From the NCBI GenBank assembly GCA_008632985.1, contig QPGO01000333.1, positions 1 to 53,335 on the forward strand: DNA of 53,335 bases. The letters run 5' to 3'. This DNA comes from Psammoneis japonica (Eukaryota). The position numbers and the translations under genes are program-made. Within the stretch, counting starts at the first letter, position 1. The number at the start of each line of letters is the position of its first letter. This document shows positions 1 to 25,516 of this stretch, in pieces. Below the pieces are notes generated by a model. The model saw only the letters and a list, made by a program, of their open reading frames with translations, did no database searches and had not been told where the DNA came from.

Positions 1-10
1 AAACGACGCA

Positions 11-1357
11 ATGAACGTTTGGCCTTGTGGGAAAGAGTCAACCTGCAAAGAATCTGTGTTGATCCAACAAGGAATGCGATGCCCATGTCGTGAGAGAGTG
101 GCCTTTGGCCATCAATGCGGACACGAACTCAAAGCCGACGGAAAGCTCAACACACCCAAATGGTCAAATCGATGGCTCTCAGAGCGAGCACACTCAGTTG
201 CAATGCCAAGTCATGAGAACAATGAGACGACATTGAACAACAGCGATTCCAATGATGGAGATTTGTTGTACGACCACAAAGAGACCCAACAACACAGTTC
301 GCCAACCTTGGATGACGACCGGGACATCACCTCAGACGAAGACGACGACAGAACTGTGTCAGGTGATTTGGCGGGAGACAACTGCAACAAAGAGGAACTA
401 ACACCGCATCTTGCCTGCCAAGATTTGACATTCCAAGCATCCAACCTCATTGGGTCAGTTCAAGGCGACCAATCTAACATGGCCGCTCTTTCCTCATTGC
501 TCCAAACAATGGCGGACAGGGCGAGACGCGGGATGAGAATCCACGCTGCCTTCGACACTGCAATGTCAGAAGTTGTTGAAAATCCAGCAGCTGCTCCACT
601 GCCTGGCATCCTACAAGCAATGCCACAAGCAAGCAGCCAAAGATGCAAGAGGTCCCGGCAAGAACTCCGGCGTGATGCGATGCATGCATCAAATGGCTCC
701 AACCGACGTCACGGCACATCGAGCAACCGTTGCTCCATGAGATCTTCCAACGATGGTGAACATCTTCAACCGCCAAAGAAAAGGAAGAACACATGCAGTG
801 CTTGTGCCAAACTGAAGCACACCATCTGCACTTGCCCAAGTCTCCACAAGCACAAGAGACCACCACTGGCACCCGGATCACGACCAGAACGTGAAACGTT
901 GCAGGCCCAGCTTCTGAATCCTCAAGTGTTCCCTGCAATCCCAAGAGCTCAATCGGATGAGCGACTCATTTCTCAATCAACACCCAAAAACATGAGTGGT
1001 GTTGTCATCCATCGATCGCTCTGTTGCACCGAAGACGCTCAAGACACCTGTCTCGAGTGCACATTTCTAGGAACGCGCGCAGAGCCAGACGAAGATTTCA
1101 CCAATGCTTTGTTTGCCACCACTGCCATCGTCACGTTTATGTCAAAAAGCAAAACCAACCATGTCACATGCGAAATGAAGGCAGAATCCGTAGCAAGACT
1201 TGTTCCATTGCCGCCACAACTGAGTCAGCCTGCCGTCTCGGACTCGGGACTCACTCAGCATTCCATCCAAGCGCCTTTTGGGACATTCAGCATTCCATGG
1301 GAATTCACTGGACAGGCCAATTCAGTGACAGATGATGCAACACCCCACCAAGTTTAA
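11..1357 (+). pseudogene. C-terminal part of a Mutator-like (MULE) transposase, 5' end outside the window, TpA-mutated
   Basis: SWIM-type zinc finger CPCRERVAFGHQCGH near the start and CCHC knuckle CSACAKLKHTICTC downstream, the usual MULE C-terminal arrangement; only one Tyr in 448 aa. Confidence 0.6.
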
Positions 1358-2359
1358 AACAATCTAACATGCCAACGACGGAACCCAATCGTCCATTGTT
1401 TGTTGTTTCCAACCAAACACAAAACCAAAAAATTGTTTCCTGGAGAACGCATCTGGATCATTGGCAAACATGCCAAGGTCTGCAAGAGTAGAAATGATCC
1501 GTGATGCACAGAGTGATGCAGAGAAGAAGGTCGAAGAAGCAATTCAGAAAGCAACAATGCGGTCGAGTGTGCAAAGGAAACATGCATGCCGTCATGAATC
1601 GGCCACACACCATTGGTCAAAGTCAACAATGCACCACAAATCCAGCATCATCATTGGATCAAGCGCATCGTGACATGTCCCAGATCGACTGCTGTTGTCG
1701 GGTGATGGAGGTTTTGGCTTGTGACAACAATCATGCAGCAAGCATCGACAGCAATGGAGACATGCACTTCGCGGTGGTGCATTCATTGCATGTGCGCACG
1801 CACGCGGCAGCAGATGATTCGAGTGGGAAAATTCGTGAAGTCCCAATGGAGGCAGCTGCGTGATTTCTACGTTGGTTTGTGCCAGGAAGAGGAACGGGAT
1901 GTCATTCAACAAGGTCATTTCTTAGCGACTCTCGCAACAATTTGGAGCACTGCAGTGTGTGCCAGCATCATTTGGGCCATGGCATAAAAGACAATGACTG
2001 AAAAGAAATCGGGTTGAATGATTTGTTGCACGCAATGCTCAGTGCAAATTGCGCGGGAGCGGTGGGAAGGATTCATGAGAACGGATGGCCGACAGGCGTG
2101 GTGAGGATTTGGTGAGGATTTCTGTGGTGAGGAATTAGTGACTCTCAACAGAGAGTCCTTGCCGAGTCGCACGACTTGTGATCGTGCGTGATCGGCACGC
2201 GCGGGTGCACGTCATCATCTCTTCAAGTGAAGCCGCAAGCTCCGAAGTCGCACGACAAGAGCGGCGACCATGTCGCACGGGTTGTTCGAAGCAGCTTCGC
2301 GTCTTGAGTTTGAATCAAAACCAGCAAGCACAAAATGAAGAAAGAACCAAACAACTTCA

Positions 2360-3950
2360 GTGGAAATGCCAAGGGCTCCTCGCCGCCACAATGGACATCG
2401 CCGCCGTGCTGCAACGAGGCGCACTCCTCACCGGCACAGAAACCATGCACTTCCCGCCGGCGGTCAATCTTTGCTGCGCACTTGCCATTTGCTTTGGTCC
2501 ACATCCCTGAAAGGAGTCATTCATTGGACGGCATTTCTCGCCATTTTTCTTCTTGTCATCAATCATGAGCATGACCTGGCAGATTTGGATTTGGGAGAAG
2601 AAGCATTGGACGATGAACAACCCTTCAATTTTGCTGCAGCACACTTGTTGACAGCTTTGGTTGCTTGTCGTCATCTCGCAGATCATTGGGCAAGGCAAGA
2701 TGCAGCCCTTGCTGACATTCCATTCCAAGAAGAGCTTGAAATGGATCCAAGCTTTGAGCGAGTTAGACACCGGCCAATCGACAACTGCTCCAGTGCATGG
2801 CTCAAGATTTGTGCACGGTTTGACCGTGAGCAGGTGCACCGCCTGCATGCGCTTTTTGGTTTGCCACAAGCTGCAAGAGTTCCAGCAACCGGCAACAAAG
2901 CACATGTGTTTGGAGGTGAAGATCTGTTTTTGTTTTCCTTGACAAAGATTGCGGCTGGACTCGACAACGTCAAATTGTGCGAAGGTTTCTTTGGCGGCGA
3001 TGCCAGGCGGTGGTCACATGGATGCCCTTGGTTCCTTCGGCATGCTGAGCATCGGTTTGGGCATCTCTTGGACAGAAACAGTCTTGAGCGATGGGTGGAT
3101 GACTTTCCATGATTTGCGGCTGCAATTGAACAAAAATTGGCTGCACCTTCACGTTGGACAAATCCATTGAATGATGTGCAGCGTTTGGTGCTGGGTTTGC
3201 GGTTTCCGAATGGTGTGTTCAACATGTTTGGATTCATGGACTGCTCCATCTTTGAGATGGAGACCCCAGGAACAGGTCCCATTGGAGATTGGATCGATGT
3301 GCCCCGAAAGCCAAACGCCTGCGACTTGCAGCGTTCAGTGCACATGCGGCATGAAAAATTGCATGGCACAAAGGTCCTCAGCATGGTCTTGCCCAATGGA
3401 ATCTCTTTTGTTTGGGGACCAGTGTCAGCTCAAAGGCAAGCATTTGCTCCCATTTGCAGTGATGAGTTGCAAGCAATGTCCAACCAGCGCATTTGCATCT
3501 GTCGTCTGTTGAATTGTCAGAGCCGATGCCAGGCTTCAAGAACTCAGCGGCATCAACAATTGCTTGTTGCAGCTCCAACAAGGCCGTTTTCCAAATGGGA
3601 AAGTCCATGCAGTTTATGCTGACAAAGGTTTTATGGCCATGCAATGTGTCAGACAGGTGCATCGACCTGCCCAAGGTGCCCCGCTTACACCAATCCAAAT
3701 TCTGCAGAACTTTCGGATGAAATGTGTTCGCATTGCAGTTGAGTGGAGCTGTGGTGTGGTGGCAAATTTGTTCAGGGTGTGTCGTACATTCAGTGATTGG
3801 AAGCTGTGTTGTGAGCATCCATGTGCATGTGATCAATTGAGGGTTTCATTTTTGCTGGCCAATTGCTGCACTTGTTTCAATCACAATCAAATTAGCAGCA
3901 TGGGCACCTTCGGTCTTTCGCCACCAACGGTCCAAGAGCACCTGCAGTGA
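2360..3950 (+). pseudogene. Harbinger/HARBI1-like DDE transposase, disrupted
   Basis: Motifs FGFMDCS, HGTKVLSMVLPNG..GPVS, YADKGF, RIAVEWSCG, LLANCCTCFNHNQIS; in-frame TGA at 3110-3112 (likely CGA->TGA) and a frameshift near 3500. Confidence 0.85.
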
Positions 3951-4099
3951 ACAACACAGACACACTTTCACAGTTCATGTGTTGATTGTCTGGAGAATGA
4001 GTGCTTTCCAGAGGTCCATCATGTTTTGTTTCAACACCTCTGGCGGATCGGAACCCTCATTGACTTGTCCAAACAACCCTGCAGTTGTGCGTCAAAAAA

Positions 4100-5156
4100 A
4101 ATCCCAGCGCATTTTGCTCAACAAGGCGTTGCTTTAGAAGCACTTGGAATTGTGGGACAATCAATGGCAGCAACATTGTCTGCGGATCGAGAACGTTCCA
4201 ATGGCGTTGCTTTTGTTTTCACACCTTGAGTGCAACCAAATCGGCACTCATGTGTCCTGCTGACCCCGCACTTGCGCGCCCAAATCCCAGTGCGTTTGGC
4301 TCAAGTGGGCGTTGCTTTAGAAGAACTTAAAATTGTGACACAATCAACAGCAGCAACATTGTCTGCGGATTGAGAGCGTTCCAATGGTGTCACTTTTGTT
4401 TTCACACCTCAAGCACAACCAAATCAGTGTTCATGTGTCCCACCGACCCCGCACTTGCGCGCCCAAATCCCAGCGCGTTTTGCTCAAGCAGGCGTTGCTT
4501 TAGAAGAACTTAAAATTATGACACAATCAATGGCAGCAACATTGTCTACAGAGTGACAGCTTTCCAATGGCGTTGCTTTTGTTTTCACACCTCAAGCACA
4601 ACCGAATCAGCATTCATGCATCCCACTGACCCCGCACTTGCGCGCCCAAATCCCAACGCGTTTTGCTCAAGCAGGCGTTGCTTTAGAAGAGCTTAAAATT
4701 GTGACACACAATCAATGGCAGTGACATCATCTACAGAGTGACAGCGTTTTAATGGCGCTGCTTTTGTTTTCATGCCTCAAGCACAACCGAATCAGCACTC
4801 ATGTGTCCTGCCGACCCCGCACTTGCGCGCCCAAATGTTGCAGCGCGTTTTGCTCAAGTAGGCATTGCTTTAGAAGAACTTAAAATTATGACACAATCAA
4901 CAGCACTGACATTGTCTACAGAGTGACAGCGTTCCAATGGCGTTGCTTTTGTTTTCACACCTCAAGCACAACCGAATCAGTGTTCATGTGTCCTGCCGAC
5001 CCCGCACTTGCGTGCCCAAATCCCAGTGCGTTTTGCTCAAGTGGGCGTTGCTTTAGAAGAACTTAAAATTGTGACACAATCAACAGCACTGACATTGTCT
5101 GCAGAGTGAGAGCGTTCCAATGGTGTTGCCTTTGTTTTCACACCTCATGCACATCC
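4100..5156. repeat. Tandem array of ~5.8 copies of a ~183-bp unit
   Basis: GC(G/A)TTGCTTTAGAAG recurs at ~4126, 4309, 4492, 4675, 4862 and 5045 with the intervening sequence conserved. Confidence 0.95.
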
Positions 5157-5293
5157 AATCTTGTGGCCTCCCACAGGTCGCATGCCAAAGTCAGACGGGC
5201 CATTGAAAACACACTGTTTGATCAATGACATGAACTTGCTAAACATGAATTAAATCTGAGCCAACAATGGAAAGAAACCAATCATTTGGAACT

Positions 5294-6391
5294 TCATTTT
5301 GTGGATGGTTTGGTGGTGGCATTGGATTCGGCAGGCTTTTTGCCCAAAGACGAAAAAACTTCCTCAGACATGGCTCCATGGAAAGCACTTGGACGCTCGT
5401 CCTTTTCTCCACTTTTTTCCACATCGCTCTTGAGCATGTGCAGCTCCCGCAATGTTTCCACATCCAACTTGCGCTTCTTGGATGCTTGCAGCTCAGGGGA
5501 GCCGAAGGCCATTCCACTTGACAGATTTGAAAACAAGGATTCAGCCCCTTTCTGGGCGTCCTCCAAATTCGTTACAAAATCCCTTGACCGACTGTCTCCA
5601 CTTGCTGATCCATCCAGGCGCCCAACAGTTGCAACTGTGGTTGGCTCAATGTCACGGCCACAGGCTGAGTGCTTGCCTCCATTGAATGGAGCTGGAGGTG
5701 TGAGACCAAGCTCTGACTCACACCTCTCGTTTGTTGCTTTTCTTGCTGCTGCTTTGTTGCGCTCCTCTTTAGCCTCATCTTTCTTTGCTGCCTGTGCTGA
5801 AAGCCTTGCTTCATTGAGAGTCTTTGCCAGCACCTCACATCCTGTCGCATCCTTCTCAGCTCCTTTCGCCTCCTTTGCATCACACTTTGCGGCCAAAACA
5901 CGAACTCTTTTGAGATTTGCTTCGCGCCAATTGCGAATTTTGCTTGGTGCCTCTGGCGGAAGACAGCCTCTTGCTGGTCCTTTAACAGGATCGTAGAACA
6001 AGTGGAAAATCTCCTCCCATTTTGGATCGCTCTCACCCGCTGGCATTGGCAAGTGGGCATTTCGTGTGCTGATCAATGTCAAGAGATCCCAACAGAGCTC
6101 TTGATTGACCTCTTTTGCAAGGTTTGGCAGGTGACTCTTTCCCAGCAATGCCTCAATGTCAGCCTCCTTTGGGATGTTTGGAGCCTCCAACAAAGGTTCT
6201 CTGCCAGCAATGTTGTTGCACGCGGAGGGCTTCACCCCAACAATTGTCACATCCCCAGCGGTGCAATCCCCCTCTCCGGTGGCATGCCCAGTTGGTGGAG
6301 AGTTTTCATCTCCAACACCAAGTTTGTCTGGATGTTGCATCAGAGCATCAAGAGCACTTTCGAAGTCGCAGGTTGTCTTTTTCTCTGCCAT
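5294..6391 (-). CDS. Harbinger second ORF (putative Myb/SANT-like DNA-binding protein), 365 aa, TpA-mutated
   Basis: Inside the TIRs, convergent with the transposase; trihelix-like segment LLTLISTRNAHL...KWEEIFHLF followed by a charged coiled-coil region. Confidence 0.55.
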   Translation of the reverse strand: MAEKKTTCDFESALDALMQHPDKLGVGDENSPPTGHATGEGDCTAGDVTIVGVKPSACNNIAGREPLLEAPNIPKEADIEALLGKSHLPNLAKEVNQELCWDLLTLISTRNAHLPMPAGESDPKWEEIFHLFYDPVKGPARGCLPPEAPSKIRNWREANLKRVRVLAAKCDAKEAKGAEKDATGCEVLAKTLNEARLSAQAAKKDEAKEERNKAAARKATNERCESELGLTPPAPFNGGKHSACGRDIEPTTVATVGRLDGSASGDSRSRDFVTNLEDAQKGAESLFSNLSSGMAFGSPELQASKKRKLDVETLRELHMLKSDVEKSGEKDERPSAFHGAMSEEVFSSLGKKPAESNATTKPSTK

Positions 6392-7397
6392 GGTGCCGGT
6401 GTCATCTCATGGCCCATCAACGCCGGTGTGTGTTTTTGAGTGCTTTTGTTCTTTGGAGGCAAGTCGGAGGCGAGGGTTCTCGAACAAGTCGCGCGAGCAC
6501 CTTGCGCGAAGATTGCGCAGAAGACATGCCACAGATGTTCCGACACTGCACGACTTCAAGTGCTGAAAATCGGCTCGCAAGTCATGTGATCGGCAAAATC
6601 ACGCAACTTCAGTGGACTTTGCATGGCTTTGCGAGGCTGCCCACCAGCTAAATTAATTGAGAGTTTCTCTGAAGTTGCGCGAGAACAAGTCGCACGACTC
6701 GGCAAGGAAGGACTCTCCAATCACTGAATGTTGAGACCCTGTCCAAACACTGTCATGCGTGTGATCACACCTGACGTCGTGGCGCCCAAAATGAGCCTCT
6801 TTGAAAAAATTGGTGGTCATCAGCCCTGTGCATGACGTAATTTTAGGCCACACCAACTTTCATGAGGATGTTCTCGCGAGAACAGACTTCCTCGGAAACA
6901 TCACACCCAAACATCATTCCCCACCGACGAAACACGAAAACAACTGATGTGCATCGTTTTTTGATGCGGCCAAAGCGCATGTGGCTGCACATCACACGAG
7001 GCAACCACATGAGACCATGCATGAGCCTCTTGTTGTCTTTGGGGGGCTTTGTGTGCCATTCTGGACTCTTCTGACACAACCATTTTGCCAAGCAGTTTCT
7101 TAAAATAAGTTCATGTCATGCACTCTTACAGACAACTGATTTAGCCACAAGTCACACACAAGCATGATTTTTTATCAATGGGTGTCCTTTGCATGGCTTG
7201 TTGTCGCCTTGTGGTTGCGTTCTCGTCATCATGGTCATGTCGTTCTCGTCGTGTTGTTATCGCTGGTTCATTCATGTTGTATCTGGTGTTGCTTCGCGCA
7301 CTGTAAGTTTGAATCATTCGATTGATGTCCATGAGGTACGATCACAATAGTCTGGGAACCTGCGCACCGGTGCGAATGTGTTTGGACAGAACATTGC

Positions 7398-8733
7398 TGT
7401 GGAGGTAGACGGAAAGAATGCAACCCTGGGTACAACTGCGCAGGGTCTAGCACTTCTTCTACAGGGTCACCAGGAAAGCACAGACACCGACTTCCGCTAC
7501 ATCAACCTGCAGCACCCTCCAAGACGCGCAGCTGCGAAGACAACCAAAAAAGAAAACGATCGCGACAATGGCCTCCCTTGCGTCGCTGATGTCCACATCT
7601 ATTTTTGCCGCATTTTCCCGTTTCTTTTCGCAGCATTCGGAGCTTTTATACAAGCAACATGATGGGCTAGTGGTGCTGGCGTTGAGTTCAATCCGTCGAG
7701 GCGGATTTGTCGCTGAAGGTGCAGTGCAGAAATTGTGAGAATGCAGCATCAACATGACGGATTTTTGTGACACACCATTGCATCTTTGGTGTTGTTTCTC
7801 ACTTCTTGTCATCATTTTGACGCATGTGCCACAAGGTGTCCACGGGGCTTGGGTTTTTATGGTGCTGACTTTCTCTTCGGAACTCATCGTTGAACAATCA
7901 AAATTGAGCTGCCACTGGAATTTATGGTGAAGAGTTGGCGGCGGTGACATCTCAACATCCCTTGGGCCGATTTTCGCGATTCTTGTTTCGTTGTTGATGG
8001 AAATTGTACAAGGAATCCAAGAGGCTTGGTTTTGTTGTGCAAAATTCCATTCTGTGCAGATGGATTTATTGGATGCCGTGCGCACAGAAATGATGCTTCA
8101 ATTGGAAGGGGCGCTCCAGCGATGTTGTGGATTGAACAAGGAAGAATGAAGCCCTAGACACGCACTGCATGTAACAAGAATGTTGAACATGAATGTCAAA
8201 CATGGCACGGGGTTTTTTACGTCAGTTGATCGTGTCGGGTTGCCTTGATTTGACAGAACATTCCACGGCACCAACCGGTTTGACATGCAGCTGGAAATCG
8301 GCTTCCTCCAGTGTTCCAACCAATTTGACCTTGCTTGCATGGGCAAGCTGTTGTCGCCTGGTTCGGGCGTTCCATGCGCCTTTAGACCCATCCACCACGA
8401 CATCGTTGGGGGTTGTTTGAATGGCCTCTGGTTGGTGAAGTCTTGTTCACATTGACAAGTCACCCCGCCAAGAAATAACATGAGTGCTATCAAGGTTGGC
8501 TTGTAATGCTTTTTAGACGGCATGGTCTCGGTTGTATTGTTGCATAAATCTATCAAAAACGCGACGTACCATGCAACAACCCGGTTGTTTCGATACGGGA
8601 AAAATTCCCGTGCTTCCTCCACAAGAACACGGAAGATACGATCGCTGAAGTGGGGTAACGGTCAGTACAATGTGTAGAATTCAACGGAGAAATACTACGG
8701 AATACAACATGGGTTGTATTCCCGGGATAATGT
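7398..8733 (-). mobile_element. Crypton copy A, internally deleted derivative
   Basis: 7398-8209 aligns with 8731-9549 and ~8212-8733 aligns with ~11268-11784; about 1.7 kb covering most of the recombinase gene is missing. Confidence 0.8.
8212..8523 (-). pseudogene. N-terminal ~100 codons of the Crypton tyrosine recombinase
   Basis: MPSKKHYKPTLIALMLFLGG...SNQGNPTRSTDV is a paralog of the start of 9616..11583. Confidence 0.85.
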
Positions 8734-11700
8734 GGAGGTAGCCGGAAAGAATACAACTCTGGGTGCAACTGTGTAGGTTCTAGTACTTTTCCTACGTTGT
8801 AGGTTGAGAACTCGAGCATCACCAGTGAAGCACAGACACCGACTTCCGCTACATCAACCTGCAGCACCCTCCAAGACGCGCAGCGGCGAAGACAACCACA
8901 AAAGAAAAAGATCGCGACAATGGCCTACTTTGCGTCGCTGATATCTATATCTATTTTTGCCGTATTTTCCCGTTTCTTTTCGCAGTATTCGGAGCTTTTA
9001 TACAAGGAATATGATGGGCTAGTGGAGCTGGCGTTGAATTCATTCCATCGAGGCGGATTTGTCGCTGAAGGTACCACACAGAAATTGTGAGAATTGAGCA
9101 TCAACATGACGGATTTTTGTGATATTGTAATGCATCTTTGGTGTTGTTTCTCACTTCTTGTCATTATTTTGACGTTTGTGATATAAGGTGTCTATAGGGC
9201 TTGGTTTTATTCCGTACTGACTTGCTCCTCGGAACTTATCGTTGAATAATCAAAATTGCGTTTCAATTGGATTTGATGATCAAGAGTTGGCGGCGGTGAT
9301 ATCTAAACATCCCTTTGGCCGATATTCGCGGTTCTTGTTTCATTTTCAACGGTACTTCTACAATGAATCCGACAGGCCTGGTTTTATTGTGCAAAATTTC
9401 ATTCCATGGAGATGGATTTATTGGATGTCGATTGACACCCAAATGCTGCTTCAATTGGAAGGGACGCTACAGTAATGTTTTGGATTGAAAGAGGAATAAT
9501 GAAGACCTAGACATGTATGACATGTAACATGAATATTAAATATGGTATGTAATACAAACAAACATGAACTGACATGGAATGCAATCGCCGTCTGACCCCT
9601 TCTTTCTTTCTGCCACTAAACCTGCAGCAATGGACTCAGACGGTTGTTGCGCTTGTCTTGTTTCAATGCATTGATAATCTGAGTCACTGGTTTTGCTGCA
9701 CCATAAACCTGATACACGCGATCACAAGCTACCTGGGCACTCAATCCAGCTCGGACAAGCCCAGCCACCACGTCCCATAGAACCTTCCTTCTGTGGTACT
9801 TGTGCTTGACTCGACCGCGCTCCTCTCTGGTAAAGTCTCGTGCTGCTTTCCTGCCACCAATTCCATTCTCATACTCTTGCCACAGAATGTGAACAGTCCT
9901 TGGATTAGGGCTCAGGGTGCTCTCATAAGGGACATGATTTGGATTATTATTGTTGTTTGCACCTTGCTGAGGCGGGACGTTTCCTGCCGCTTGTTGGTTA
10001 CCCTCTTGGTTTCGTACAACTCTAAATGCCGGCTGGGAAGCAAGGCGTCGCATATTGCGTTCTACATTTGCAAGTCGGCGCTCCAGCTGTGCATGACGAT
10101 CATCGGAGCTGGCTTTGAGCTCCTCTACGACGCGACGCAATGACCTCACCTCGGAGTGCATCGCGAGCAATAGATTTCGATCGGCAAGCCCGCGGCCGGC
10201 TGCGACGCCCCCATTCTGAGCGCCATTCCCCCCATCATCAACATCCACCACTTCATTGAAATATACCTCGGCATCTTCACCAGTCACCACCATCAATACT
10301 TTTTTAATTGGGTTCTCGCCAATCGGCAGTTGACGCACTCCATTGCATGCTTGGAGAATGCGCTCTCTCAGATGTTGCGGAAGGCACTCGCTTTCCTCTG
10401 AAAAAGCAAACCACAGCAGTGCTTTCCCAAGCACCAAAGCAATCTCAGAACCAAATTTGTTGTTTATTGCCGGCACTGCATGCTCCAATAAAAAATCATT
10501 TGAAACTCCAGCCCCCTCCTTGACAATGTATTTGCACGGGCCTCCAACACAGAGTGCCGAGGCAACCTTGGCATCCGGCCACGGCAACTCTACATCATCA
10601 TACAAATCCGACATGCGCTTGGATATTTTCCAACGGCCACGACAGTCCTTCTCGTCTTTTTGGCACCCGTTTTTGCGGGCACGCGTTGAGCCATATTTTC
10701 TGTTGCTGTGCGAGCCAACCAGTCCTTTGGTGCTTCCTGTTGCAGCAACAAATTCTGGATGAATGTATGCTTCGTTTGCGAGTGTCTTGGTGACTGCATC
10801 CTTCACCTTTTCTCCTCCTTCTGGCACACGAAGGTCATCGGTTAATCCAAAAATGTGAGGTGTGCGTTCTGCGGCACCTCCTGCACCATGGAACACTTCT
10901 AGCCAAATTGCCAAGCCAAGCAAAGAACAAAACTGTGGGTCCATTGCCCCAATGAGAATTTGGTTTGGGGCATCTCTTTCTTCCAGACAGTTCTTTGACC
11001 AATTTAGCCTTGCCCGTAGCGTAAAGTCATTGGCTGGATGGGGGGTGAAATTCTCATTGAGGAACTGCGTGCAATCGTCGATTCGACCAATCATGTGAAC
11101 CTGAAACCGGAACAAGCTTGGCATGAGATGCTTTCGCAGCATGGAATTGGTCTGGTTTTCCTCGAGCATTTTGATTTGAGCCCGGTGCTCCTCGTCTTTC
11201 AATGGTCGTCTCTTTTTTGACGGCGCACCCCTGTTCCGAGTTTCCTCTTTCTTGACCTTTTTGATGAGTTCGTTTACGTCGGTTGATCGTGTCGGGTTGC
11301 CTTGGTTTGATTGAACATTCCACAGCATCAACCGGTTTGGCATGTAGCTGGAAATCGCCTTCTTCCAGCATTCCAACGAACTTGACCTTGCTTGCTTGGG
11401 CAAGTCGTCATCGCCTGGTTCGGGCGTTCCATGCGCCTTTAGATTCATCCACCGCTTGACATCGTCGGGGGTCATTTGAAGCAGCCTCTGGTTGGTGAAC
11501 TCTTGTTCATGCTGATGAGTCACCCCATCAAGAAATGACATGAGTGCCATCAAGGTTGGCTTGCAATCATTTTTAGACGGCATGGTCTTCGTTGTATTGT
11601 TGCATAAATCGATCAGAAACGCGACGTACCATGCAACAAATCGGTTGTTTCAATGCGGAAAAAACTCCCGTGAAAAACACGGAAGGTACGGTTGCTGAAG

Positions 11701-11784
11701 AGGGGGCAACGGTCAGTGCAATGTGTAGAATTCAACGGGGAAATACTACGGAATACAACATGGGTTGTATTCCCGGGATAATGT
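8731..11784 (-). mobile_element. Crypton (CryptonS-like) copy B, full length
   Basis: Single intronless YR plus GCR1_C ORF; ends defined by alignment with copy A; no long TIR or LTR of its own. Confidence 0.85.
9616..11583 (-). CDS. Crypton tyrosine recombinase with C-terminal GCR1_C-like DNA-binding domain, 655 aa
   Basis: Candidate catalytic set MIGRIDD (R), WSKN (K), HSNRK (HxxR), GRWK (W), DLYDD (Y); C-terminal LSPNPRTVHILWQEYENGIGGRKAARDF...YHRRKVLWD is GCR1_C-like. Confidence 0.9.
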   Translation of the reverse strand: MPSKNDCKPTLMALMSFLDGVTHQHEQEFTNQRLLQMTPDDVKRWMNLKAHGTPEPGDDDLPKQARSSSLECWKKAISSYMPNRLMLWNVQSNQGNPTRSTDVNELIKKVKKEETRNRGAPSKKRRPLKDEEHRAQIKMLEENQTNSMLRKHLMPSLFRFQVHMIGRIDDCTQFLNENFTPHPANDFTLRARLNWSKNCLEERDAPNQILIGAMDPQFCSLLGLAIWLEVFHGAGGAAERTPHIFGLTDDLRVPEGGEKVKDAVTKTLANEAYIHPEFVAATGSTKGLVGSHSNRKYGSTRARKNGCQKDEKDCRGRWKISKRMSDLYDDVELPWPDAKVASALCVGGPCKYIVKEGAGVSNDFLLEHAVPAINNKFGSEIALVLGKALLWFAFSEESECLPQHLRERILQACNGVRQLPIGENPIKKVLMVVTGEDAEVYFNEVVDVDDGGNGAQNGGVAAGRGLADRNLLLAMHSEVRSLRRVVEELKASSDDRHAQLERRLANVERNMRRLASQPAFRVVRNQEGNQQAAGNVPPQQGANNNNNPNHVPYESTLSPNPRTVHILWQEYENGIGGRKAARDFTREERGRVKHKYHRRKVLWDVVAGLVRAGLSAQVACDRVYQVYGAAKPVTQIINALKQDKRNNRLSPLLQV

Positions 11785-14642
11785 ACGGGTATGACCTATG
11801 ACGTCATCATAAGAGCCTGCGTGACGTGGGTATGATCATACCTATGATACTGTAGTGTTTGGACAGAGTCTGACTCTCGCACTTGCCCGTGCAATAAAGG
11901 TGTTCCACGAAAAGTTAGTTCTATTTTGAAATACCAGATACCATGAACAATACATACCTATTACATTCTCGCAAGACATCGGTTTAAAGAGTATGAGACC
12001 GATAATGCTCATATCTTGTGTATTTTGTGGCTCTAGCGGGGGTCAAAGTCTAGCTAATTCTTCCAAAAAATTCGAGTCGAGTGGGTCATGCGGGATTCAA
12101 GACACGTGACTCACCGTACGTGAAGGGCAAATTGACCCTTTCTCGACACCGAGATTAGATGATAACATCAACACAAGACCTATTTCATGGCTATATTCTA
12201 TTCTCTAATCCATGGCTGACCTCGTGACAACTATATTTGACCTCTTTTATGCTATAGACAGGCCAAGTGATCCACAAAAACTCATTGCAAGCAACGCACT
12301 TGTGTTTTCACATTTGACACTTGTGTCTTTGTGATCAATCTAGAGTGGATGCAAGCCAGAGAGAAGCTCTGTTAACTAACATTTATCATCCTATAGAATA
12401 ACATCGTCAGAACAATTTTGTCAACGTTGTTTGACTCTTTTTTTCTTTGCCGCACGCCAACTTCATTCTGCGTTTTCACTCCCATCCGCCCGACTCTCTC
12501 CCACTCAAGAATGCTTGGCTGAATGCACTGCAGTTCCTTCATCAAAGTCTCACAAATGTTCGTCTGTTCAATGCTGTTGATCAAATGGGACAGATGATGT
12601 GACGACGACGTTGGATTCGTTCATGTGCTCATGCCAGGAAAGACAACAAGAGTTGGCTGCGGCGGCAAGAAAGTTGAGTGAGACAACAAGTGGTGAGACT
12701 TGGACACATTGATGACACCATTTTGATTTTAAATTTACTTGCATTTTTTTTAACTCGGACTTTAACACATCGGGTTCCGAAAATCCGGCAAATGGCGAGT
12801 TGATGCGTCGTCTGCATGCAACATGGCGTCACGAACGAGTGCAACGGCATGCTTCAATGTCACTCGCCAAAATGAATGTCTCCGAATGGACAATTACAAC
12901 CGTGTGTCAATGACGGTCTAACAGAGCTTCTGTTGCAATGGTCCAAAAAACAACGAATGTTTAGACACCTCATCTGCTGCATCAATGTCATCGTCGGCTC
13001 CGGCGGGTTTTTGACAATTTCTCCATCCGTGTTGTCACACAGTGGTTCAAAGCGGCATCGGCTTCGTAGAAACAATTTTTTTGCACCAGCGTAGAACTGT
13101 GCGCATGTGTCTGGCACACAAAAATCATGCCACATCAACCATTTTCTCCAATCTTCGGCAATGGCGGCGTTCGTCGGTTCGCAGCCATTGCGCTGCTGAA
13201 ACCATGTCAATTGTGATCAAACCTGTGGCACGTCACTCGTCACCCTCTTCTCAATTCATGTGTTCCTTTGAAGCTGCACATTCTTTAGCCACAATCCAGA
13301 CAATCAACAACATCAACACAAGGCAAAAATCCAAAGCAGATGCGAGTTGCTTGTTGGCATCAACCTCACATTTTTGTCACAAACGCCCAGCTGAACAGCA
13401 TTTTGCTGCTCTTTCACTTGATTTTCCAGGGTTTCATTGTTGACAAATGCCATGCTCCAATTGTCCAAGGTGCGGTTTGCCGAGGCCATGAATGCACAAG
13501 CCGTGTGGAGAAATCTTTGGATTGAACAGATGTTGTGTCGACACCCCGATCCGTTTTTAAACATTGCCAAAGGAGTGCAGCGAGTTTCTGAGTTTCTGTC
13601 CATTCTGTTGGTGACTCGAGTGAGCAAGCTGTGCTCGATGCCACCTTGGTCTCCACTGAAAGGTGCGACATCAAAACATCCGACTCCGCTTGTTTGTGTC
13701 GTAGACTCAGATGTCTTCCACAGACAGCTTTCGTTTGTGGCAACAGATGATTCCACAATGTAAAATAAAGCACAAGAATGCCCCATTGACATCATGCTGG
13801 CTTTGTCTTTTAGAGATGGGAAGGAGATCAATGGCAGCTCAGCAGCAAAGACATTGGATCGCGCTCAGTTTCAGAGCTGAGATCTGGGCTAAACCCATTT
13901 TGCAAAGAGCTGCTCAAGTCATGAGACAGCGCCACAACTTGTGGGCAATTGACTGACACCAGAAGCGTTCAAAAGCAGTGTGGAAAGGATGAGACGATCA
14001 TCGGCCAATCCAGTTTGAGCTTACAAAGGATTGTTTTACGATCAAGTGTTCGCTGTTTGACGTCACATGCTGGAAAATTGTGTGCATTCTGCACAGAAAT
14101 CGGAGCACCAATTTGAAGCTGCTGCTTTGTGGTCAAAATGAGCTTGCCATTTGGAGCACATTTGAGGAGCGGTCACTCAAACAAGCAAAGGGAAGGGCCA
14201 TGGAAGGTGCTCCAAATGCCACAGCAGTTTTGATGTTGGAATGACATCTTGAAACATGCAGCTCTGTGTCATTAAATGGGATTCCGTGAAACAGGCTTTC
14301 TTGCACGCAAGCAAGGAATTTTAAAAATTTTCGAGGTCGATCGAACTCCAGAACATTTGTTGAGATTTTAGTCGCACAAGTCGAAGCTGATGCCACTTGC
14401 ACGCAGAACTGAACCACTGTGGTCACCACCCCTGTGCTGGGGGAGAATGTGGTGATGTCATGGTCACGCGGCAGATTTGCACCTCATTCATTGCACTTTA
14501 ATGTAAATGTCCTCATGCTCATTTGTGCATTTGCACACAAATGCCAACAGCAGCAGGAAAAATCCTGAACCATGTTCTCCCCTGAAACTCTGACCTCCAA
14601 ACTCCGAGGGTGCGGAAACGCACTTTTTTGGAAGACTGCGCA

Positions 14643-14853
14643 CTGGGGGAAGTCTCCAGCCAGCTGCTGGCTGAAAAACGTCTGCTGGTCAGTGCGTTTG
14701 GGGGTTTTGCAAGTGCAATTTTTACGCACGCAAAAAGAAGACAAGTCTGTCCAGCGTTCACCAAAACCCCCTGACGCACAGATTGACAGACTCTTTCAGT
14801 GCAATTTCTGCACAAAATTCTTCAGCCAGCAGCTGGCTGGAGACTTCCCCCAG
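14643..14853. mobile_element. MITE-like element inserted in the left TIR
   Basis: 33-bp perfect inverted repeat CTGGGGGAAGTCTCCAGCCAGCTGCTGGCTGAA; CA on both flanks (possibly a mutated TA TSD); absent from the right TIR. Confidence 0.8.
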
Positions 14854-15578
14854 CACACACCAAAACATCACGCGTTTTGACAACTCGACCATGACGACCT
14901 CCCACTCTCCATCCCCCACAACACCGCACATGTCCCCGCCTGACCGCTCTGATGTGGTGGTCCCTCCTGCATTGGCCGGCACCGTTGCACCCGCTGTCGT
15001 CACCCAAACACAGCCGATTTGCCATCCGGAAGGTTTGGGCTTTTGTTTGCCAGATCCAGCACCTGAAACTCAACCTCGCATGCAGTTGAGGAGGCCATGT
15101 GTGACTTTGACACAAGGCTTGACGATTCTGATTAAAAGCGGTGTCCATCAAGAAAGGAACAAGAAAGCATTGCATCAAGTCCAGAAGAAGCCATGAGCAA
15201 TGAAGAAATCCAAGAGGCAAATCAAGAAAAGATCAAAGCAATGTGGGGTGGCATGTTTAACAACATGTTCGGTGGAGCTGCTCTTGGGAAGAGGAAGCAA
15301 AGAGTGTGGCACATGTCATCGTGATCAGCATCTAACTGGTGGGCAGCAAAGCGAGCCGTGATGCAATGCCAATTGCTTTCAACCCAACACACCCATGAAG
15401 CTGCAAACCTTCAAGTGACACAAAAACATCCTAGCGTTTCTCACCCTCGAAACCGTGGATCGCAGGTTTTAGCCTGCAGGTGCCTTGTCCGCCCTTTCCA
15501 TGTGGCAAGAAAAGGAGAAAATGTGAATGTCTCGTCATGTCGGTGAAATTTCGGATGCTTTGGTTGTTTGGAATTCGG

Positions 15579-15925
15579 TGTGACAATGTTCACATTTGCA
15601 TGTTTTTACAACAACATCGGACCTCCACGATTCAAATCAAAGATCCAAGATTCGAACCCCGTGTGCGATGCTCAGTCTCGAATCCCGCAGAAGCCGAGTC
15701 ACGAATGCGATGTTTGTTCCCAGCTTTGTGCTTGTTTAACTTCGCATTTCCTTTAGATGGCAGCTGCATCTGCTCACAAAAACTGCTCACAATCTTTCTA
15801 ACGCACTGATTGTCACCTCTCAACTTTTGGCACAACAAAGTTGCTGATTGATTGTTGTGTCGCAATTGCAGCTTTCAATCACTGAAAGTGCAGACAAATC
15901 CTAGAATTCTAGCTGCTTTCCCCCA
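15579..15925 (+). repeat. Copia 5' LTR
   Basis: Direct repeat of 21787-22135; starts TGTGACAATG. Confidence 0.95.
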
Positions 15926-15999
15926 CGCTTCCTCTGCGCAATCTACAAGTCAAGTCAATCGATCTTAAGCTCTCGACCCTGCTTCACTCTGCTGCTGCC

Positions 16000-17506
16000 A
16001 TGGTCACGCAGACACGAACCGCGGCTGCTCTGGCTGCCTCTGTTGCAGCTCCTGCTGCAGCACCCGCTGCAGCTCCTGCCACTGCTGCTGCTCCGGCAAC
16101 AGCACCTGCTCCTGCAGCCGCTCCAGCTGCTTCTGTGCTTCCTCCAGTCGTCCCTCCTGGTGTTCGTCCAGGAGGAGGTGGCGGAGGAGGTGGAGGCGGA
16201 GGCGGAGGTGGAGTCCCACCAGGTGGAGTCCCGCCAGGTGGAACACCATTGGCACCTGTGCCACCACTGCCGATCTTCGCGTTGACCCCAGGTCAACACC
16301 GTCCCAACAACTTCATTGACTGCGACACATCGCAAGGCCTCAAGCTTTGGAACGCCGTCACTGCTCCGCTGCTGCACGAGTTTGACGGTGATTCAGAAGG
16401 CCTTGAACAGTTTTGTGAGACGCTCAGTCAACGAGCTGCTGAGGCAGGATGGAGGACAGGGGCAGGGAACACACTCGCCATTCCTGACGTGAATGGCACT
16501 CCCAGAGATCTCATCTCCGAGTGCGGACTGCTCACTCTTCAGGATGTAAGAACTCACGCGAACACCTTCACGAATCTGCCTGCGCGACAAGCACAGAACA
16601 ATGTGCAGATGGCCGAGGCTGTCTCTCAATCCCTTGCGGAAGAAGCAAGAGACAAGACACTGGCTGAGATTGATTCCCACACGATCGATGGAAATCAAAT
16701 TGGCGCACTCTTCTTCAAGCTGCTTGCGCAGAAGGCCATCGTTGACACACGCTCTGCCACCAACTGCTTCTGCGAGAACTTGTCAAGCCTGGATGCGCAC
16801 ATGGCGGCTGTCAACTCGGACATCGAGGAGTTCAACAAGTGTGCCAAGCTCAACGTTGACGGACTCCAAGCTAGAGGAGAGCAGTGCAACGACCTTGTCA
16901 TGAATCCACTCAAAGGACATGCCACAGCTGCTGACGAAGCATTCATCAAGTGCATCATGTCACACAAGGACAGGTGCGATGACGGTGAGGAATTCACGCC
17001 GACGCAAATCATGACATTGGCATTGAACAAACACACTGACCTCAAGCGCAAGAAGAAGTGGGGAGCACTGTCGCCGGCTGAAGAGCAAATCGTCGCACTT
17101 GCAGCCAAGGCAGACTCTGGCATTTTGTCAGAACCTTCAGCCATCCAAAGCATTGAAGGCCAAGGCTGGTTCAACCAAGGAAAGAAGCACACGGTCAAGG
17201 AAGACCAAGACTGCTCCACGTCAGAAACAGAAGGCGGACAAAGCCTGGAAGAAAGTCCTGCCTGAGGAGGACGCTCCTAAGAAGACAGTGAACGGTCATC
17301 AGCACTGTCACAAGTGCGTCAACAATCGCGACTGTCACTGGTGCCCATGTCACACTGCTTGGGTCATGCACTTGCCTGATGATCCGGGCAACCAAGGCTG
17401 TAGACTCCGCAAGCAACAGTCTGCCCCATCCACAGACACGTTGGACAAGAAAGTCTCCTTTGCAAGTGTCATCTCTGCCATCCCAAACGAAGTGGATCAA
17501 GAGTGG
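16000..17506 (+). pseudogene. Copia gag, frameshifted near 17100-17150
   Basis: Ala/Pro/Gly-rich N-terminus, FALTPGQ..FIDCDTSQG..EFDG gag core, zinc-binding CHWCPCHTAWVMH; no Tyr in the 421-aa ORF. Confidence 0.85.
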
Positions 17507-20500
17507 CTGCTCCACAGGTTCACTCTGACACTGCTGCTGTCTTTGCAGATGGCCACCACTGTGTCGGCACTCCTGACAGCGGTCGCTGGCATCATGAAAT
17601 GTGCAGCACCAATGTGGATCACACTGTCATTCATGATGCTGTCCCTTCCTTCACAGAAGTGTGAGCACCTGTCACATGCCGTGATGATGCCAGGTGAGTG
17701 GGTCATCTCACATGTCCTGGCTGAACTGGGCACAAGACGAATTAAGACTTGCCAGCGACGGCCAACGACGAGGCCCTGCGCACGGCATCACACGTCAACG
17801 AGGCCAGGTCACCGCTCCAGAGTGGCCACCAAGAAGGCTTGCCATGTCATTGCACGATGCAAGACAGTTGGAGCATGCAACTCAACCACTCCATGCCGTC
17901 CCGAGCGAACAGAGCCCACTTGCGATTCGGGTTCATTCGTGATCGGTGTTGACTCGCATTCTTCCTGCACCATGTCCAACAACGAGGCACACTTCATTGG
18001 TGCTCTTCGCAAATCCAACAAAGCAGTGCTCGGTGTCAAGGGTTGCTCACGTGCCAAGGGAGAAGGGACAGTGCAGTGGGCAATTAGGATGACATGGGAC
18101 AAGTGCACAGCATTGAAATTCGAGACGCACTCTGTGCACCCGACTTGCCTCATTGTCTGCTCTGCCCTCAGCAATGGAGCCAACAAGCCAATGACCACAT
18201 GCCAGAGCCTCACGGAACCGCATCTTGGACCAGGGACGACGAACTGTTGCTCATGTGGGATCAACGCAAGTGTCATCGCCTGATTCCATGGTCCGCCAAC
18301 TCCAATGTCGCCAAGATGCGCTCCGCACCCGGTTCCAACAAATGCCGGACCTTTGCAGCCGCTGTCAAAGAACAAACCGATGTCGAAACTGTCAAGCACA
18401 TGGCCCATCAAGCTCACATCACACCACCAGACAACGAGAGCATTGCGAATGATGACGAGGCTGCAATTGATGCAGACGTCTTCAGAAGTCCATCCGAGAC
18501 ACGTCCTTCCAAGATGCAAGATGCACGCAACACTGCTGATGAGGATGCTCCTGTCTCATTTGAGCCAACAGACGGAGCAAGTCGTTCAGACTCAGACAAG
18601 GAAAACCCAAGGGATTTCACGACACCGGAGGCACAGCAGGACTTGCCGGAACCCATCAACATCACACCAAATGATGACGCCCTTGCTGCCACTGATGACC
18701 AGGGTGAACTGTTGCATTGGCATTGTCACCTGGGCCACATGTCATTCAAAATGACAAAGCCATTGGCCGCCCCAGGCATTCCACCGAAACGCCTTACAAA
18801 GGCACACAATCCAAAATGTGCCGGCTGCCCACATGGTGCCATGACAAAATGACCATGGCGCTCCAAGTCCAAGCGGAGCCGACGAATCCACTTGGCAACT
18901 TCGCCTGGAGAAGCAGTGTCCGTCGACCAGCTCGAAAGTCCTGCTCCTGGACTGATCCCACAGCTCAAAGGGAGACCTGCAAAGCAAAGGTGTCGAGCAG
19001 CGACAATTTTTGTTGATCATTTCAGCGGATTGGGATGCATGCATTTGCAGAAGGGGCTTGCCTCAGCCGAGACGCTCCAAGCCAAGCACGCTTTCGAGGC
19101 ATTTGCAGGCCGGATGCACGCCCGCATTCGACACTGCCATGCCGACAATGGAAGATTTGCTGACAATGCTTTCACACAAGACGTCAAGAAGCAACAGCAA
19201 ACAATGTCTTGTTGTGGGGTTAACACCCACTTCCAAAACGGCATCGCGGAGAAAAGAACAAGGGACCTCCAAGAGCAATCTCGGAAGCAACTCCTGCATG
19301 CAAAAGTGAGATGGCCAACGGCCATTGAGTTGAACTCATGGCCAAGCACTCTCAGGAACTCAAATGAGATCAAGAATCACTTGTCGAATTACGAGGACGG
19401 CTCCTCTCTGCTGGAACGTTTCTCGTCCATCAAGGTCCAGCCTGGTCTCAAGCAACACCACACCTTCGGCTGTCCCGTCTGCGCCTTGCACAACCGGTTG
19501 CAGGGAGGGGGCAGAGCACCCAAGTGGGACCCAAGAGCGAGGTCAGGGATCAATCTGGGACCATCAACAAGACACACAGGTTCAGTTGCCTTGGTTTTGA
19601 ATTTGCAGACCGGACTTGCATCGCCACAATTTCATGTGCAATTCGACGATTTCTTTGAGACTGTTCATCCATCTGCTGGGAATCCTCCTACATTCTTACA
19701 ATGGCAAGGCATTGCAGGTTTCAGACAACTCAAGACAGGGAGCACTTTCAACATCTTTGGGAGATCAAATGACGCACCGGCCGAGGGATCAATCCCTGCC
19801 GCATCGGAACCATCTGAGCCAAACTCGGATGTCCCGTCTCAGCTGCTGCATCTTGCTGACACGTCCACCACTGATGACTCATTTGATGGTGCCCAACCAG
19901 ATGATGAGACACTGCTCACGCCTCTAGATGATCCTGACGTGCCATCTGAGCCACAGCGCACCATGGGTCAACCCAGTGCCAGCAGGTCCGGCCAACAACG
20001 ACGCCCGACCGAAAGGATGCACAAGAGCCAACCACAACGGGCTCAAGGCACAGTCTCCTGCAATGCAGAGGCAGAGGCACATTGTGGCACAATGCATGAG
20101 GATGATTGCAAACTGCAGGACGACATGGACTCACCTGTCTCTTTTCTGGCGAGCTCGGACCCCGACACCATGTGCTTTGACCAGGCCATGCGTGAACCTG
20201 ACAGAGACGAGTTTGTCAAAGCCTGTGTTAAAGAGGTCAATGATCACATTGAAAGGAAACATTGGATGCTTGTTCCAAGAGAGGACGCACCTGATGATGT
20301 TGATGTTCTCCCTTCGGCATGGTCTGTGAAGTGCAAAAGAGACATCAAGACTCAAGCCGTCTACAAATGGAAGTCCCGACTCAATGTGCATGGTGGAAAG
20401 CAAGAGCATGCTGTCAACTGCTTCCAGACCTGTTCTGCCGTGGTCTTTTGGTTCACCATCCGGCTCCTGCTGATCACAGCCATTCTCAAGAAGTGGCACA

Positions 20501-21743
20501 CATGCCAAGTCGACTTCGTTCTGGCGCGTCCGCATGCCGACATTGAGCATGACATGCACATGGAGTTGCCTGCTGGAATTGAAACAAAACACGGCAATGG
20601 CAAAACTCATGTTCTGAAGTTGCTCAAGAACTTGCATGGACAGAAGCAAGCAGGGAGAGCATGGCAAGAACACTTGCATGATGGATTGTTGAGGATTGGT
20701 TTCGTGAGTGCCTGCATTTTCGTGGCAATGTCATTTTCATTCATTGTGTTGATGACGGCATCTTTGCATCCCCTGACAAGTCTGCTGTTGACAAGGCGAC
20801 ACAAGACATCAGAGATGAGAATTTTGACATTGATGATCAAGGCACTCTGGATGACGGTGTCAATGTCGAGACGCCACCTGACGGCAGAATGAAACTCACC
20901 CAACCTCACCTCATCAATCAGACACTGGAGATGGCCAATGTTCCAAAGAGACTGCCAGACAAGTCTGCTCCTGCTCCTTCCTCCAAGATCCTCCACAGGC
21001 ATGTGAGTGAGCCTGCTTTCCAAGGGAGCTTTCATCACCGATCTGTCATCGGCAAGCTCAATTTTCTGGAGAAGAGCACTTGACCGGATGTCGCTCACGC
21101 GGTGCATCAAGTCGCATGCTTTTCCTCTGATCCCAAGGTTTCTCATGGTGAAGCCGCACCATGGCTCTGTGAGCACCTCAGGTCAACCAGAACTGAAGGT
21201 GTTGTGCTGCAGCCCTCAAAGAACAAGTCCCTTGAAGTTCACGCTGACGCGGACTTTGTGGGCAATTGGAACAAGCTGACAGCACCCGATGACGTCGGCA
21301 CTTCCAAATCTCGAACTGGGTTTGTCATCACCTGCGCAGGATGTCCGACAGTCTGGACGTCCAAGCTGCAGACTCAGATCGTGCTCAGCACTGCTGAAGC
21401 TGAATTTGTCGCTCTTTCGGAGAGTCTTTGAAGCGCCATCCCAATTGTGAACCTCATTCAAGAATTTATGAGTCACGGTCATAATGTCCCTTCCGAGACA
21501 CCAGTCGTGCACTGCAAGGCTTTTGAAGACAATTCTGGAGCACTGGAGATCGCGAGATTGCCTGAGATGCGTCCTCAGACAAGACACTTCAACCTCACTC
21601 TCCACCACTTTAAAGACCATGTTCGCAAGGGTCTCATGTCAATCCTGCCAATTGATGCGGCGGATCAGATTGCAGACATTTTCACCAAACCTCTGCCACA
21701 GAATCTCTTCGTCAAACACAGGAAATCGCTCCTTAAGTGGCAA
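17507..21743 (+). pseudogene. Copia pol (protease, integrase, RT, RNase H) with stops and frameshifts
   Basis: IGVDSHSS (PR); WHCHLGH..CAGC, SVDQLES, HADNGRF, QNGIAEK (IN); KWKSRLNVHGGKQ, QVDFV, KNLHGQKQAG (RT); HADADFVG, LSTAEAEF, FEDNSGA, DQIADIFTKPL (RH). Confidence 0.95.
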
Positions 21744-21786
21744 GACGTTTTCGAGTCATCATTCCACCCGACATTGTTGAAGGGAG

Positions 21787-22135
21787 TGTGACAATGTTCA
21801 CATTTGCATGTTTTTACAACAACATTGGACCTCCACGATTCAAATCAAAGATCCAAGATTCGAACCCCATGTGCGATGCTCAGTCTCAAATCCCGCGGAA
21901 GCCGAGTCACGAACGTGATGTTTGTTCCTGGCTTCGCGCTTGTTTAACTTCGCGTTTCCTTTAGATGGCAGCTGCATCTGCTCATAAAAACTGCTCACAA
22001 TCTTTCTAATGTGCTGGTTGTCACCTCTCAACTTTTGGCACAGTGAAGTCACTGATTGATTGTTGTGTTGCAATTGCAGCTTTCAATCACTGAAAGTGCA
22101 AAGACGAATCCTAGAATTCTGGCTGCTTTCCCACA
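21787..22135 (+). repeat. Copia 3' LTR
   Basis: Direct repeat of 15579-15925; ends CCCACA followed by the TSD. Confidence 0.95.
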
Positions 22136-25307: not shown

Positions 25308-25315
25308 TCAAGGCC

Positions 25316-25516
25316 TGGGTCTCATGGCTGCTGGCCGAAGAGTCGTCGTTGTGAAAGAGTCTGTCAATCAGTGTGTTCGGGGGAGTTTTGGCCAGATTCA
25401 GTGAACGCTGGACAGACTCAATGTTTTGCTGTTGCCGGTGCATGAAAACTGCACTGGCAAACAAAAGACTTGCTGATGACAAGCAGACTTTCTTTAGCCA
25501 GAAGCGGGCGTCCCCC
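25316..25516. mobile_element. Diverged relative of the 14643-14853 MITE
   Basis: Shares GAAAGAGTCTGTCAATC..GTGAACGCTGGACAGACT with 14744-14797 (inverted) and has weak arms GCTGCTGGCCGAAG / CTTTAGCCAGAAGC. Confidence 0.45.

Follow-up and report, generated by a model that had tools for sequence, protein, structure and literature searches.

Independent loss of TpA dinucleotides to TpG or CpA in two Crypton copies from Psammoneis japonica

Introduction

Two related Crypton transposons follow one another, head to tail, along the minus strand of a 53,335-nucleotide stretch of Psammoneis japonica DNA (contig QPGO01000333.1, assembly GCA_008632985.1; this whole stretch is the window below): a full-length element, copy B, and an internally deleted one, copy A. 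At several places a dinucleotide reads CA in one copy and TG in the other, such that the same codon specifies cysteine in one and histidine in the other. From this pair, a first-pass annotation proposed that an ancestral TA had been resolved separately on either strand after duplication. Was TA indeed the ancestor, and what kind of process could have removed it?

Repeat-induced point mutation (RIP), APOBEC and methyl-CpG decay all drive C to T, as do nearly all known DNA-mutating genome defences. To our knowledge, removal of TpA by A:T-to-G:C change has been described once, for an unrelated alga in a 2026 preprint, and no enzyme is known to do this. Here, we report that both Crypton copies lost TpA, and specifically TpA, by change to TpG or CpA, that they did so independently, and that the loss follows regions of the window.

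Results

The 5′ parts of the two copies (coordinates are collected in Table 1) differ at 58 of 508 aligned bases, and 47 of these differences are transitions. They include six adjacent CA/TG doubles against 0.70 expected, a number reached in none of 3000 permutations, which bears out the proposal that ancestral TA was resolved in each copy separately. The 3′ parts differ at 118 of 794 bases (66 transitions), with three CA/TG doubles where 0.60 were expected (69 of 3000 permutations gave as many). Here copy A has CA or TG opposite a TA of copy B at 25 sites, and the opposite pattern occurs at one. The 5′ pair also shows eight single CG-to-TG/CA differences and retains 23 CpG sites in both copies over the 508 bases; TA sites were lost more often than CpG sites. 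All peptide strings that the first-pass annotation quoted were found, within KKHYKPTL, GGVTCQCEQ, LEHWRK and ISSCM in copy A (8098–8661, minus strand) and KNDCKPTL, DGVTHQHEQ, LECWKK and ISSYM in the copy B frame. The codons are also as claimed (TGT and TGT in copy A versus CAT and CAT in copy B; CAC in copy A versus TGC in copy B), and the quoted non-coding strings lie at 9531–9549 versus 8192–8209 and at 8941 versus 7589. Its span of 8186–11530 was too narrow and takes in only part of both elements.

Direction was assigned with 120 Crypton homologues of 36–63% identity. At residue 29 the outgroup has Tyr in 98 of 98 sequences, copy A has kept Tyr (TAC) and copy B has Cys (TGC). Residue 45, Cys (TGT) in copy A and His (CAT) in copy B, is Tyr in 96 of 113 outgroup sequences. 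Residue 94 (copy A His, CAC; copy B Cys, TGC) is Phe in 51 and Tyr in 44, with Tyr in the closest relatives, and residue 102 (copy A Cys, TGC; copy B Tyr, TAC) is Phe in 85 and Tyr in 20. Leu occupies residue 56 in 97 sequences, and only CTA lies a single step from both CCA (copy A) and CTG (copy B). At residue 59, where the outgroup has Leu, Ile or Val, the codons ACA (copy A) and ATG (copy B) point to an ATA ancestor, and ATA is present in another genomic copy. A TA ancestor is therefore favored at residues 29, 45, 56, 59, 94 and 102; four of these (45, 56, 59 and 94, with outgroup Tyr, Leu or Ile) are among the six 5′ doubles. Residue 73 is His in both copies and Phe (72) or Tyr (40) in the outgroup, a loss common to both. 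Plain CpG decay is seen at residue 66 (outgroup Arg in 74, copy A TGG, copy B CGG) and likewise at residue 109.

Further copies of the Crypton were found among contigs of public sequencing runs aligned to positions 7350–11850 at a likeness of at least 80%; the best sequencing run, probably that of the source sample, contributed 385 such pieces. Among the 40 best-supported of 266 differing places, the window has CA or TG where the other copies have TA at 28, the reverse holds at two, six are of CpG type, three are transversions and one is GA/GG. The other copies have TA at two double sites, 11473 (residue 59, ATA) and the non-coding 7995–7996, and, within the 3′ part of copy A, at 7611, 7631, 7634, 7771, 7773, 7776, 7781, 7813, 7823, 7832, 7885, 7993, 7996, 8185 and 8188. 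At residue 265, a contig 98.7% identical to the window reads TAC (Tyr) where the window reads CAC and the outgroup has Tyr in 98 of 114 sequences; the same contig has ATA or GTA at residues 161, 289, 294 and 346, where the outgroup has Ile or Val. Sediment-metagenome contigs from another study, whose two runs look like one data set, have T at six of the best-supported differing places. Thus the direction from TA to TG or CA stands, but it is the outgroups and third copies that supply it; the pair of paralogs alone is insufficient.

We then examined specificity in the copy B coding sequence by reverting each TG or CA to TA and scoring an event if the residue became a common outgroup residue. 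This yielded 16 losses of TA (nine Tyr, five Ile and two Val) among ~56 ancestral sites, and two reverse changes, from TG or CA to TA, among ~319. Reverse changes are therefore rare both here and in the comparison with other copies. A:T-to-G:C changes outside TpA numbered two among ~566 ancestral sites, and CpG-to-TG/CA changes ten among ~107. TA loss exceeded both reverse change (Fisher's test, p = 1e-12) and change at other A/T sites (p = 3e-16). All 16 TA losses would be missense (Tyr to Cys or His, Ile to Met or Thr, Val to Ala). By contrast, 41 of the 333 CA/TG sites of copy B would become a stop if turned to TA, and no new stop was seen. No strand bias of outcome was evident: the copy B coding strand has eight TG and eight CA, the 3′ part of copy A has 18 CA and seven TG, and the per-kb counts favor neither outcome consistently.

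TA loss extends far beyond the Cryptons. TA observed/expected is 0.01–0.24 in each kb of 1–7000, 13001–28000 and 34001–49000 (0.28 at 23–24 kb), and ~0.5–0.6 in three islands of the window. Pooling 36.5 kb of purged DNA gives a ratio of 0.09, and pooling 12.6 kb of unpurged DNA gives 0.52, or 5.5 versus 40.1 TA per kb. Relative to unpurged DNA, purged DNA has 34.6 fewer TA, 12.6 fewer CG and 42.6 more CA plus TG per kb; the gain is close to the combined loss, so that the books roughly balance. Per 1000 trinucleotides, TAA falls to 2.6 from 9.8 and TAG to 1.6 from 7.7, with TGA unchanged, and this three- to five-fold rarity of TAA and TAG is in keeping with the abundance of long, overlapping open frames. 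The Crypton array lies within an island, yet holds two purged patches (~7500–8500 and 10250–11500). In copy A, 28 of 41 inferred TA sites were lost from the 3′ part, the most heavily purged piece of the array, against 6 of 24 in its other part (p = 9e-4); the corresponding figures for copy B are 4 of 41 against 10 of 24 (p = 4e-3). Since TA loss is unequal within each copy, the process is regional and not per element. No edge-to-centre gradient of TA loss was seen across the array.

The window holds further repeats for comparison. In a repeat pair elsewhere in the window, which follows the same pattern, the copy in the purged domain has TG or CA against TA at 14 places and against CG at 13. 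A Copia-like element is almost free of TA; it matches RVT_2 (E = 2.8e-17) and, below the family cut-off of 28.4 bits, gag_pre-integrase (E = 4.6e-06, 26.8 bits). Identity between its two long terminal repeats (LTRs) is 92%; most of the differences fall at CpG (12 sites), and there are four CA/TG doubles against 0.35 expected. We did not count these doubles as independent proof, because heavy CpG decay could yield about half of them. Separately, at 40001–46000 CpG is gone as well as TA (CG observed/expected 0.18–0.33); in the other purged parts CpG is no more than mildly reduced, at 0.5–0.9. The two decay processes thus differ in regional extent.

TA sites still present in purged DNA (n = 201 over the three intervals above) are mostly TTA or TAA. 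A 5′ T precedes 110 of these 201 sites, against 108 of 506 in unpurged DNA; TTAA and ATAT occur 45 and 0 times in purged DNA, against 29 and 49 times in unpurged DNA (chi-square p = 8e-20). This skew suggests a mutator that would prefer TA between a 5′ purine and a 3′ pyrimidine, a context that covers every Tyr codon. Surviving TTA and TAA could also have been newly regenerated from abundant TTG and CAA.

Discussion

How might one ancestral codon have ended as Cys in copy A and as His in copy B, or the other way round? We propose a process that would change T:A pairs of TpA to C:G in each copy separately. Because TA is self-complementary, an event on one strand would leave TG and an event on the other CA, so the same ancestral TAY (Tyr) could become Cys in one copy and His in its paralog. 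The process would act in patches and be nearly finished in the surrounding transposon-rich DNA. As it makes missense changes and cannot turn a sense codon into a stop, dead copies would keep their open frames. A slower, ordinary CpG-to-TpG/CpA decay would run alongside it and explain one or two of the six doubles. We consider TpA hypermutation of both Crypton copies, in place and after their separation, to be the probable main explanation, and a targeted enzymatic process of some kind, chromatin-targeted and defence-like, is likely to underlie it.

Several observations weigh against this reading or limit it. Two of the six doubles do not favor TA: at residue 47 (copy A TGT, copy B CAT) the outgroup has Arg (33) or Lys (28) and a CGT ancestor fits better, and at residues 80–81 the outgroup has Asp in 70 against Asn in 14, which favors CG. 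Of the two headline Cys/His codons, then, residue 45 holds as a former Tyr and residue 47 is better read as CpG decay. At residue 38 copy A went from TCA to TTA, a RIP-like direction (outgroup Ser in 79), and the same copy has ~6 changes of A to G away from TpA (residues 41, 69, 82, 96 and 108); the TpA limit may loosen in patches that were hit heavily, or ordinary decay may have contributed. The nearest outgroup is only 61–63% identical, so that non-coding sites are polarized by other copies alone, and the contigs that supply these copies come mostly from the probable source sample and hence are not independent of the assembly. The flank trend recurs in the Crypton pair without reaching significance (p = 0.18–0.20). 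Lastly, the T of TpA would fit the sequence as target as well as the A; comparing flanks of hit and unhit strands (pyrimidine at +1 in 40 of 53 versus 33 of 53) was not decisive.

Deamination of methylated CpG on either strand could in principle produce every CA/TG double with TA never the ancestor, and CpG decay has clearly been at work, to judge from the eight single changes of the 5′ pair, the ten inferred losses in copy B, the fit of residues 47 and 80–81 and the CpG-rich differences of the Copia LTRs. As the sole cause it is nevertheless very improbable. A CG ancestor calls for Arg or Pro, neither of which the outgroups have at residues 45, 56 and 94, and four of the six sites contradict it; a third copy has TA at 11473 and 7996; both copies retain 23 CpG sites over the 508 bases of the 5′ pair, whereas TA was lost more often; and the flanks are without TA, not just without CG. 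Harder still to sustain is a RIP-like history, in which CA and TG were the starting state and C-to-T mutation produced the TA-bearing copies. RIP classically leaves a footprint of CpA/TpG changed to TpA, a pairwise comparison gives no direction by itself, and residue 38 did go from CA to TA. The TA states, however, encode conserved residues (Tyr at residues 29 and 265, Val in 97% at residue 391), copy B gained no stop at any of the sites able to give one, and the almost TA-free flanks are the reverse of RIPped DNA. Errors of polymerase eta favor WA motifs, and a history with no dedicated system, in which such repair errors in silent chromatin or GC-biased gene conversion among repeats did the work, would account for the net shift from AT to GC, for the copy A changes at GA and AA contexts and for the patchiness. 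We regard it as improbable, since neither form predicts so strict a dinucleotide limit as 16 of 56 TA sites against 2 of 566 other A/T sites in copy B. As main cause, the data contradict RIP, GC-biased conversion and CpG decay on its own.

If TpA hypermutation is accepted, its chemistry has to be considered. We tentatively prefer deamination of adenine to inosine at TpA on either strand, by analogy with what has been proposed for Bigelowiella. Oxidized thymine mispairs, and the other candidate is that a TET/JBP-type dioxygenase oxidizes the T of TpA to 5-hydroxymethyluracil (5hmU) or 5-formyluracil as a silencing mark on transposons, which would occasionally pair with G and be read as T to C. 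Li et al. (2024, PMC11572971) describe dinoflagellate 5hmU as made by a TET/JBP enzyme, enriched on transposons and silencing them, and older work cited there has 5hmU preferentially replacing T in TA and TC. Although a T target is equally compatible with our data, TC/GA, the second preferred context of 5hmU, is not depleted in purged DNA (observed/expected 1.08 versus 1.13), and we consider thymine oxidation unlikely.

The closest known parallel is the chlorarachniophyte Bigelowiella natans, where 230 of the 231 mutations newly arisen in two viral insertions changed A to G or T to C, all of them at TpA, and an ADAT2-like DNA adenine deaminase was proposed (Mettrop et al., bioRxiv 10.64898/2026.01.13.699255). 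As described there, the changes are confined to TpA, give TpG or CpA depending on the strand, and are restricted to regions of foreign or mobile origin with low TA and high CA plus TG, all of which resembles our window; reverse-transcriptase and DDE domains are enriched among the TpA-depleted coding sequences. Our host, by contrast, is diatom-like (a stramenopile), and the targets are transposons (Crypton, Copia-like and Plavaka-like) instead of giant-virus and virophage insertions. The purge is also far more complete here, with TA observed/expected of 0.09 over 36.5 kb against the 0.45 given for a B. natans region of nucleocytoplasmic large DNA virus (NCLDV) origin. Our evidence is a comparison of sequences, whereas theirs came from mutation-accumulation lines, and the flank preference (TTA/TAA survivors, no ATAT) is a feature of our window that the parts of the B. 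natans account drawn on here do not contain. A literature search found no paper on TpA erasure in diatoms.

The process also shares with RIP of Neurospora and other fungi the mutation of repeats in place by CA/TG/TA transitions, in both copies independently. RIP, however, makes TpA from CpA and creates stops; the process proposed here would destroy TpA and cannot create them. Deamination of methyl-CpG, in diatoms linked to DNMT5-dependent methylation (Hoguin et al., 2023, PMC9998398), likewise gives TG or CA from a self-complementary dinucleotide on either strand, but it starts at CG, is opposite in GC terms, and leaves Tyr, Ile and Leu ancestors and the TA loss unexplained. In the window, methyl-CpG-type decay forms a second, weaker component. 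More broadly, diatoms may possess a programmed, domain-targeted editing defence, an inverse of RIP that would erase transposon TpA by A:T-to-G:C change with a purine-T-A-pyrimidine preference, patchily on still-intact copies, and kill proteins by recoding Tyr, Ile and Val with frames left open; we see the case for and against this proposal as evenly balanced.

The Crypton pair would thus extend to a second lineage, and to transposons, a process that a single recent preprint has described. An apparently intact transposase gene may have been crippled by 16 missense changes and zero stops. For annotation, this means that open frames of transposon genes in such genomes are no evidence of function. 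The finding is relevant to the scarcity of TpA in some genomes and to efforts to find a natural enzyme that modifies adenine or thymine in DNA. If true, and common to the rhizarian alga, the process could be an old system of the stramenopile-alveolate-rhizarian (SAR) supergroup.

Crypton elements and other features of the window

In a Pfam search, residues 579–645 of the copy B protein matched GCR1_C (PF12550; E = 7.7e-07, 29.8 bits against a cut-off of 23), and no integrase match was found. The protein has 193 homologues, the closest 61% identical; many of them carry a precomputed GCR1_C as well, and the best named matches are from Fragilaria crotonensis and Cylindrotheca. The window has the look of nuclear DNA from a diatom-like eukaryote. 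Searching PDB sequences with a 36-sequence profile of the protein returned chance-level matches only (E of 1.1 or worse). Among 36 homologues R189, R317 and Y350 never vary, while at least 90% conserve H314; copy B retains all four, with the HxxR motif 33 residues ahead of the candidate catalytic Tyr. These residues are putatively assigned to the R-H-R-Y catalytic tetrad of tyrosine recombinases. Copy B also matches 134 of the 141 columns that are strongly conserved, its frame lacks a stop, and it appears from its sequence to be an open but damaged gene.

A tyrosine recombinase joined to GCR1_C is the CryptonF layout in the list of Kojima and Jurka (2011, PMC3212892), where the sole diatom entry is CryptonS, which lacks GCR1_C. 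The element resembles CryptonF in encoding one protein with a tyrosine-recombinase-like core and a C-terminal GCR1_C, in having no long terminal repeats, and in having a non-autonomous deleted derivative (copy A) with both ends in common with the full copy; its GCR1_C sets it apart from the CryptonS listed there for a diatom. The gene body is absent from copy A, whose 5′ part abuts the 3′ part (~0.8 kb long in copy B), and in a codon alignment a one-base and a two-base gap disrupt its frame at residues 56–66.

Contigs that link 7394–7396 straight to 11784–11787, skipping 4389–4390 bases, bracket the array. They may represent either array-free sites, elsewhere or in another haplotype, or a flank that is itself repeated. 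The junctions of the two copies have only ~TGT in common, a candidate overlap; 6-bp terminal direct repeats were not established, and a repeat comparison of the window found no inverted repeat at the copy ends. A 13-base word is present on either side of the array.

Table 1. Coordinates of the Crypton array and of other features in the window
Feature	Position	Strand	Remarks
Crypton array, whole	about 7397–11791	minus	Copies A and B, head to tail
Copy B, full-length Crypton	8741–11791	minus	5′ part, putative recombinase gene, 3′ part; limits from repeat comparison
Copy B, 5′ part	11273–11784	minus	
Copy B, open frame	9616–11649	minus	677 codons; Met is residue 23 (~11583); tyrosine-recombinase-like core and C-terminal GCR1_C
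Copy B, 3′ part	8731–9544	minus	
Copy A, internally deleted Crypton	7397–8740	minus	5′ part fused directly to 3′ part
Copy A, 5′ part	8216–8733	minus	First ~130 codons
Copy A, 3′ part	7398–8191	minus	
Six double sites, copy A	8312–13, 8352–53, 8414–15, 8422–23, 8450–51, 8456–57		
Six double sites, copy B	11369–70, 11409–10, 11473–74, 11482–83, 11510–11, 11516–17		Residues 94, 80–81, 59, 56, 47 and 45, respectively
13-base word	~7379; ~11857		Flanks the array
Skipped GT..AG stretches	7734–7836; 9086–9188		Matching place in both 3′ parts
Left TA-purged domain	1–7000		TA observed/expected 0.03–0.24 per kb; 2–16 TA per kb
Right TA-purged domain	12500–28000		Includes Copia-like element
Copia-like element, LTRs	15578–15925; 21786–22135		
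Young LTR element	28546–33271		LTRs 28546–28913 and 32904–33271
Frame in TA-free DNA	35248–37944	minus	898 codons
Repeat pair	44467–44686; 48987–49213		
Tandem array	3985–5204		In left purged domain
Run of N	39225–39681		457 N, masked or unassembled

In one run, contigs pass over exactly 101 bases, bounded by GT..AG, at corresponding positions of the two 3′ parts. This is suggestive of splicing in a plus-strand transcript of the Crypton 3′ region. A second gene there was considered and rejected, as joining across the stretch yields frames of only 58 and 77 codons.

Elsewhere in the window, the young LTR element has near-normal TA; its LTRs are 98.9% identical, and three of their four differences are TA versus TG. 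The 898-codon frame has a weak match to Plavaka (KDZ), below the Pfam cut-off (E = 3.2e-04). The tandem array consists of ~6 copies of a 183–185-base unit, with 62–89% identity.

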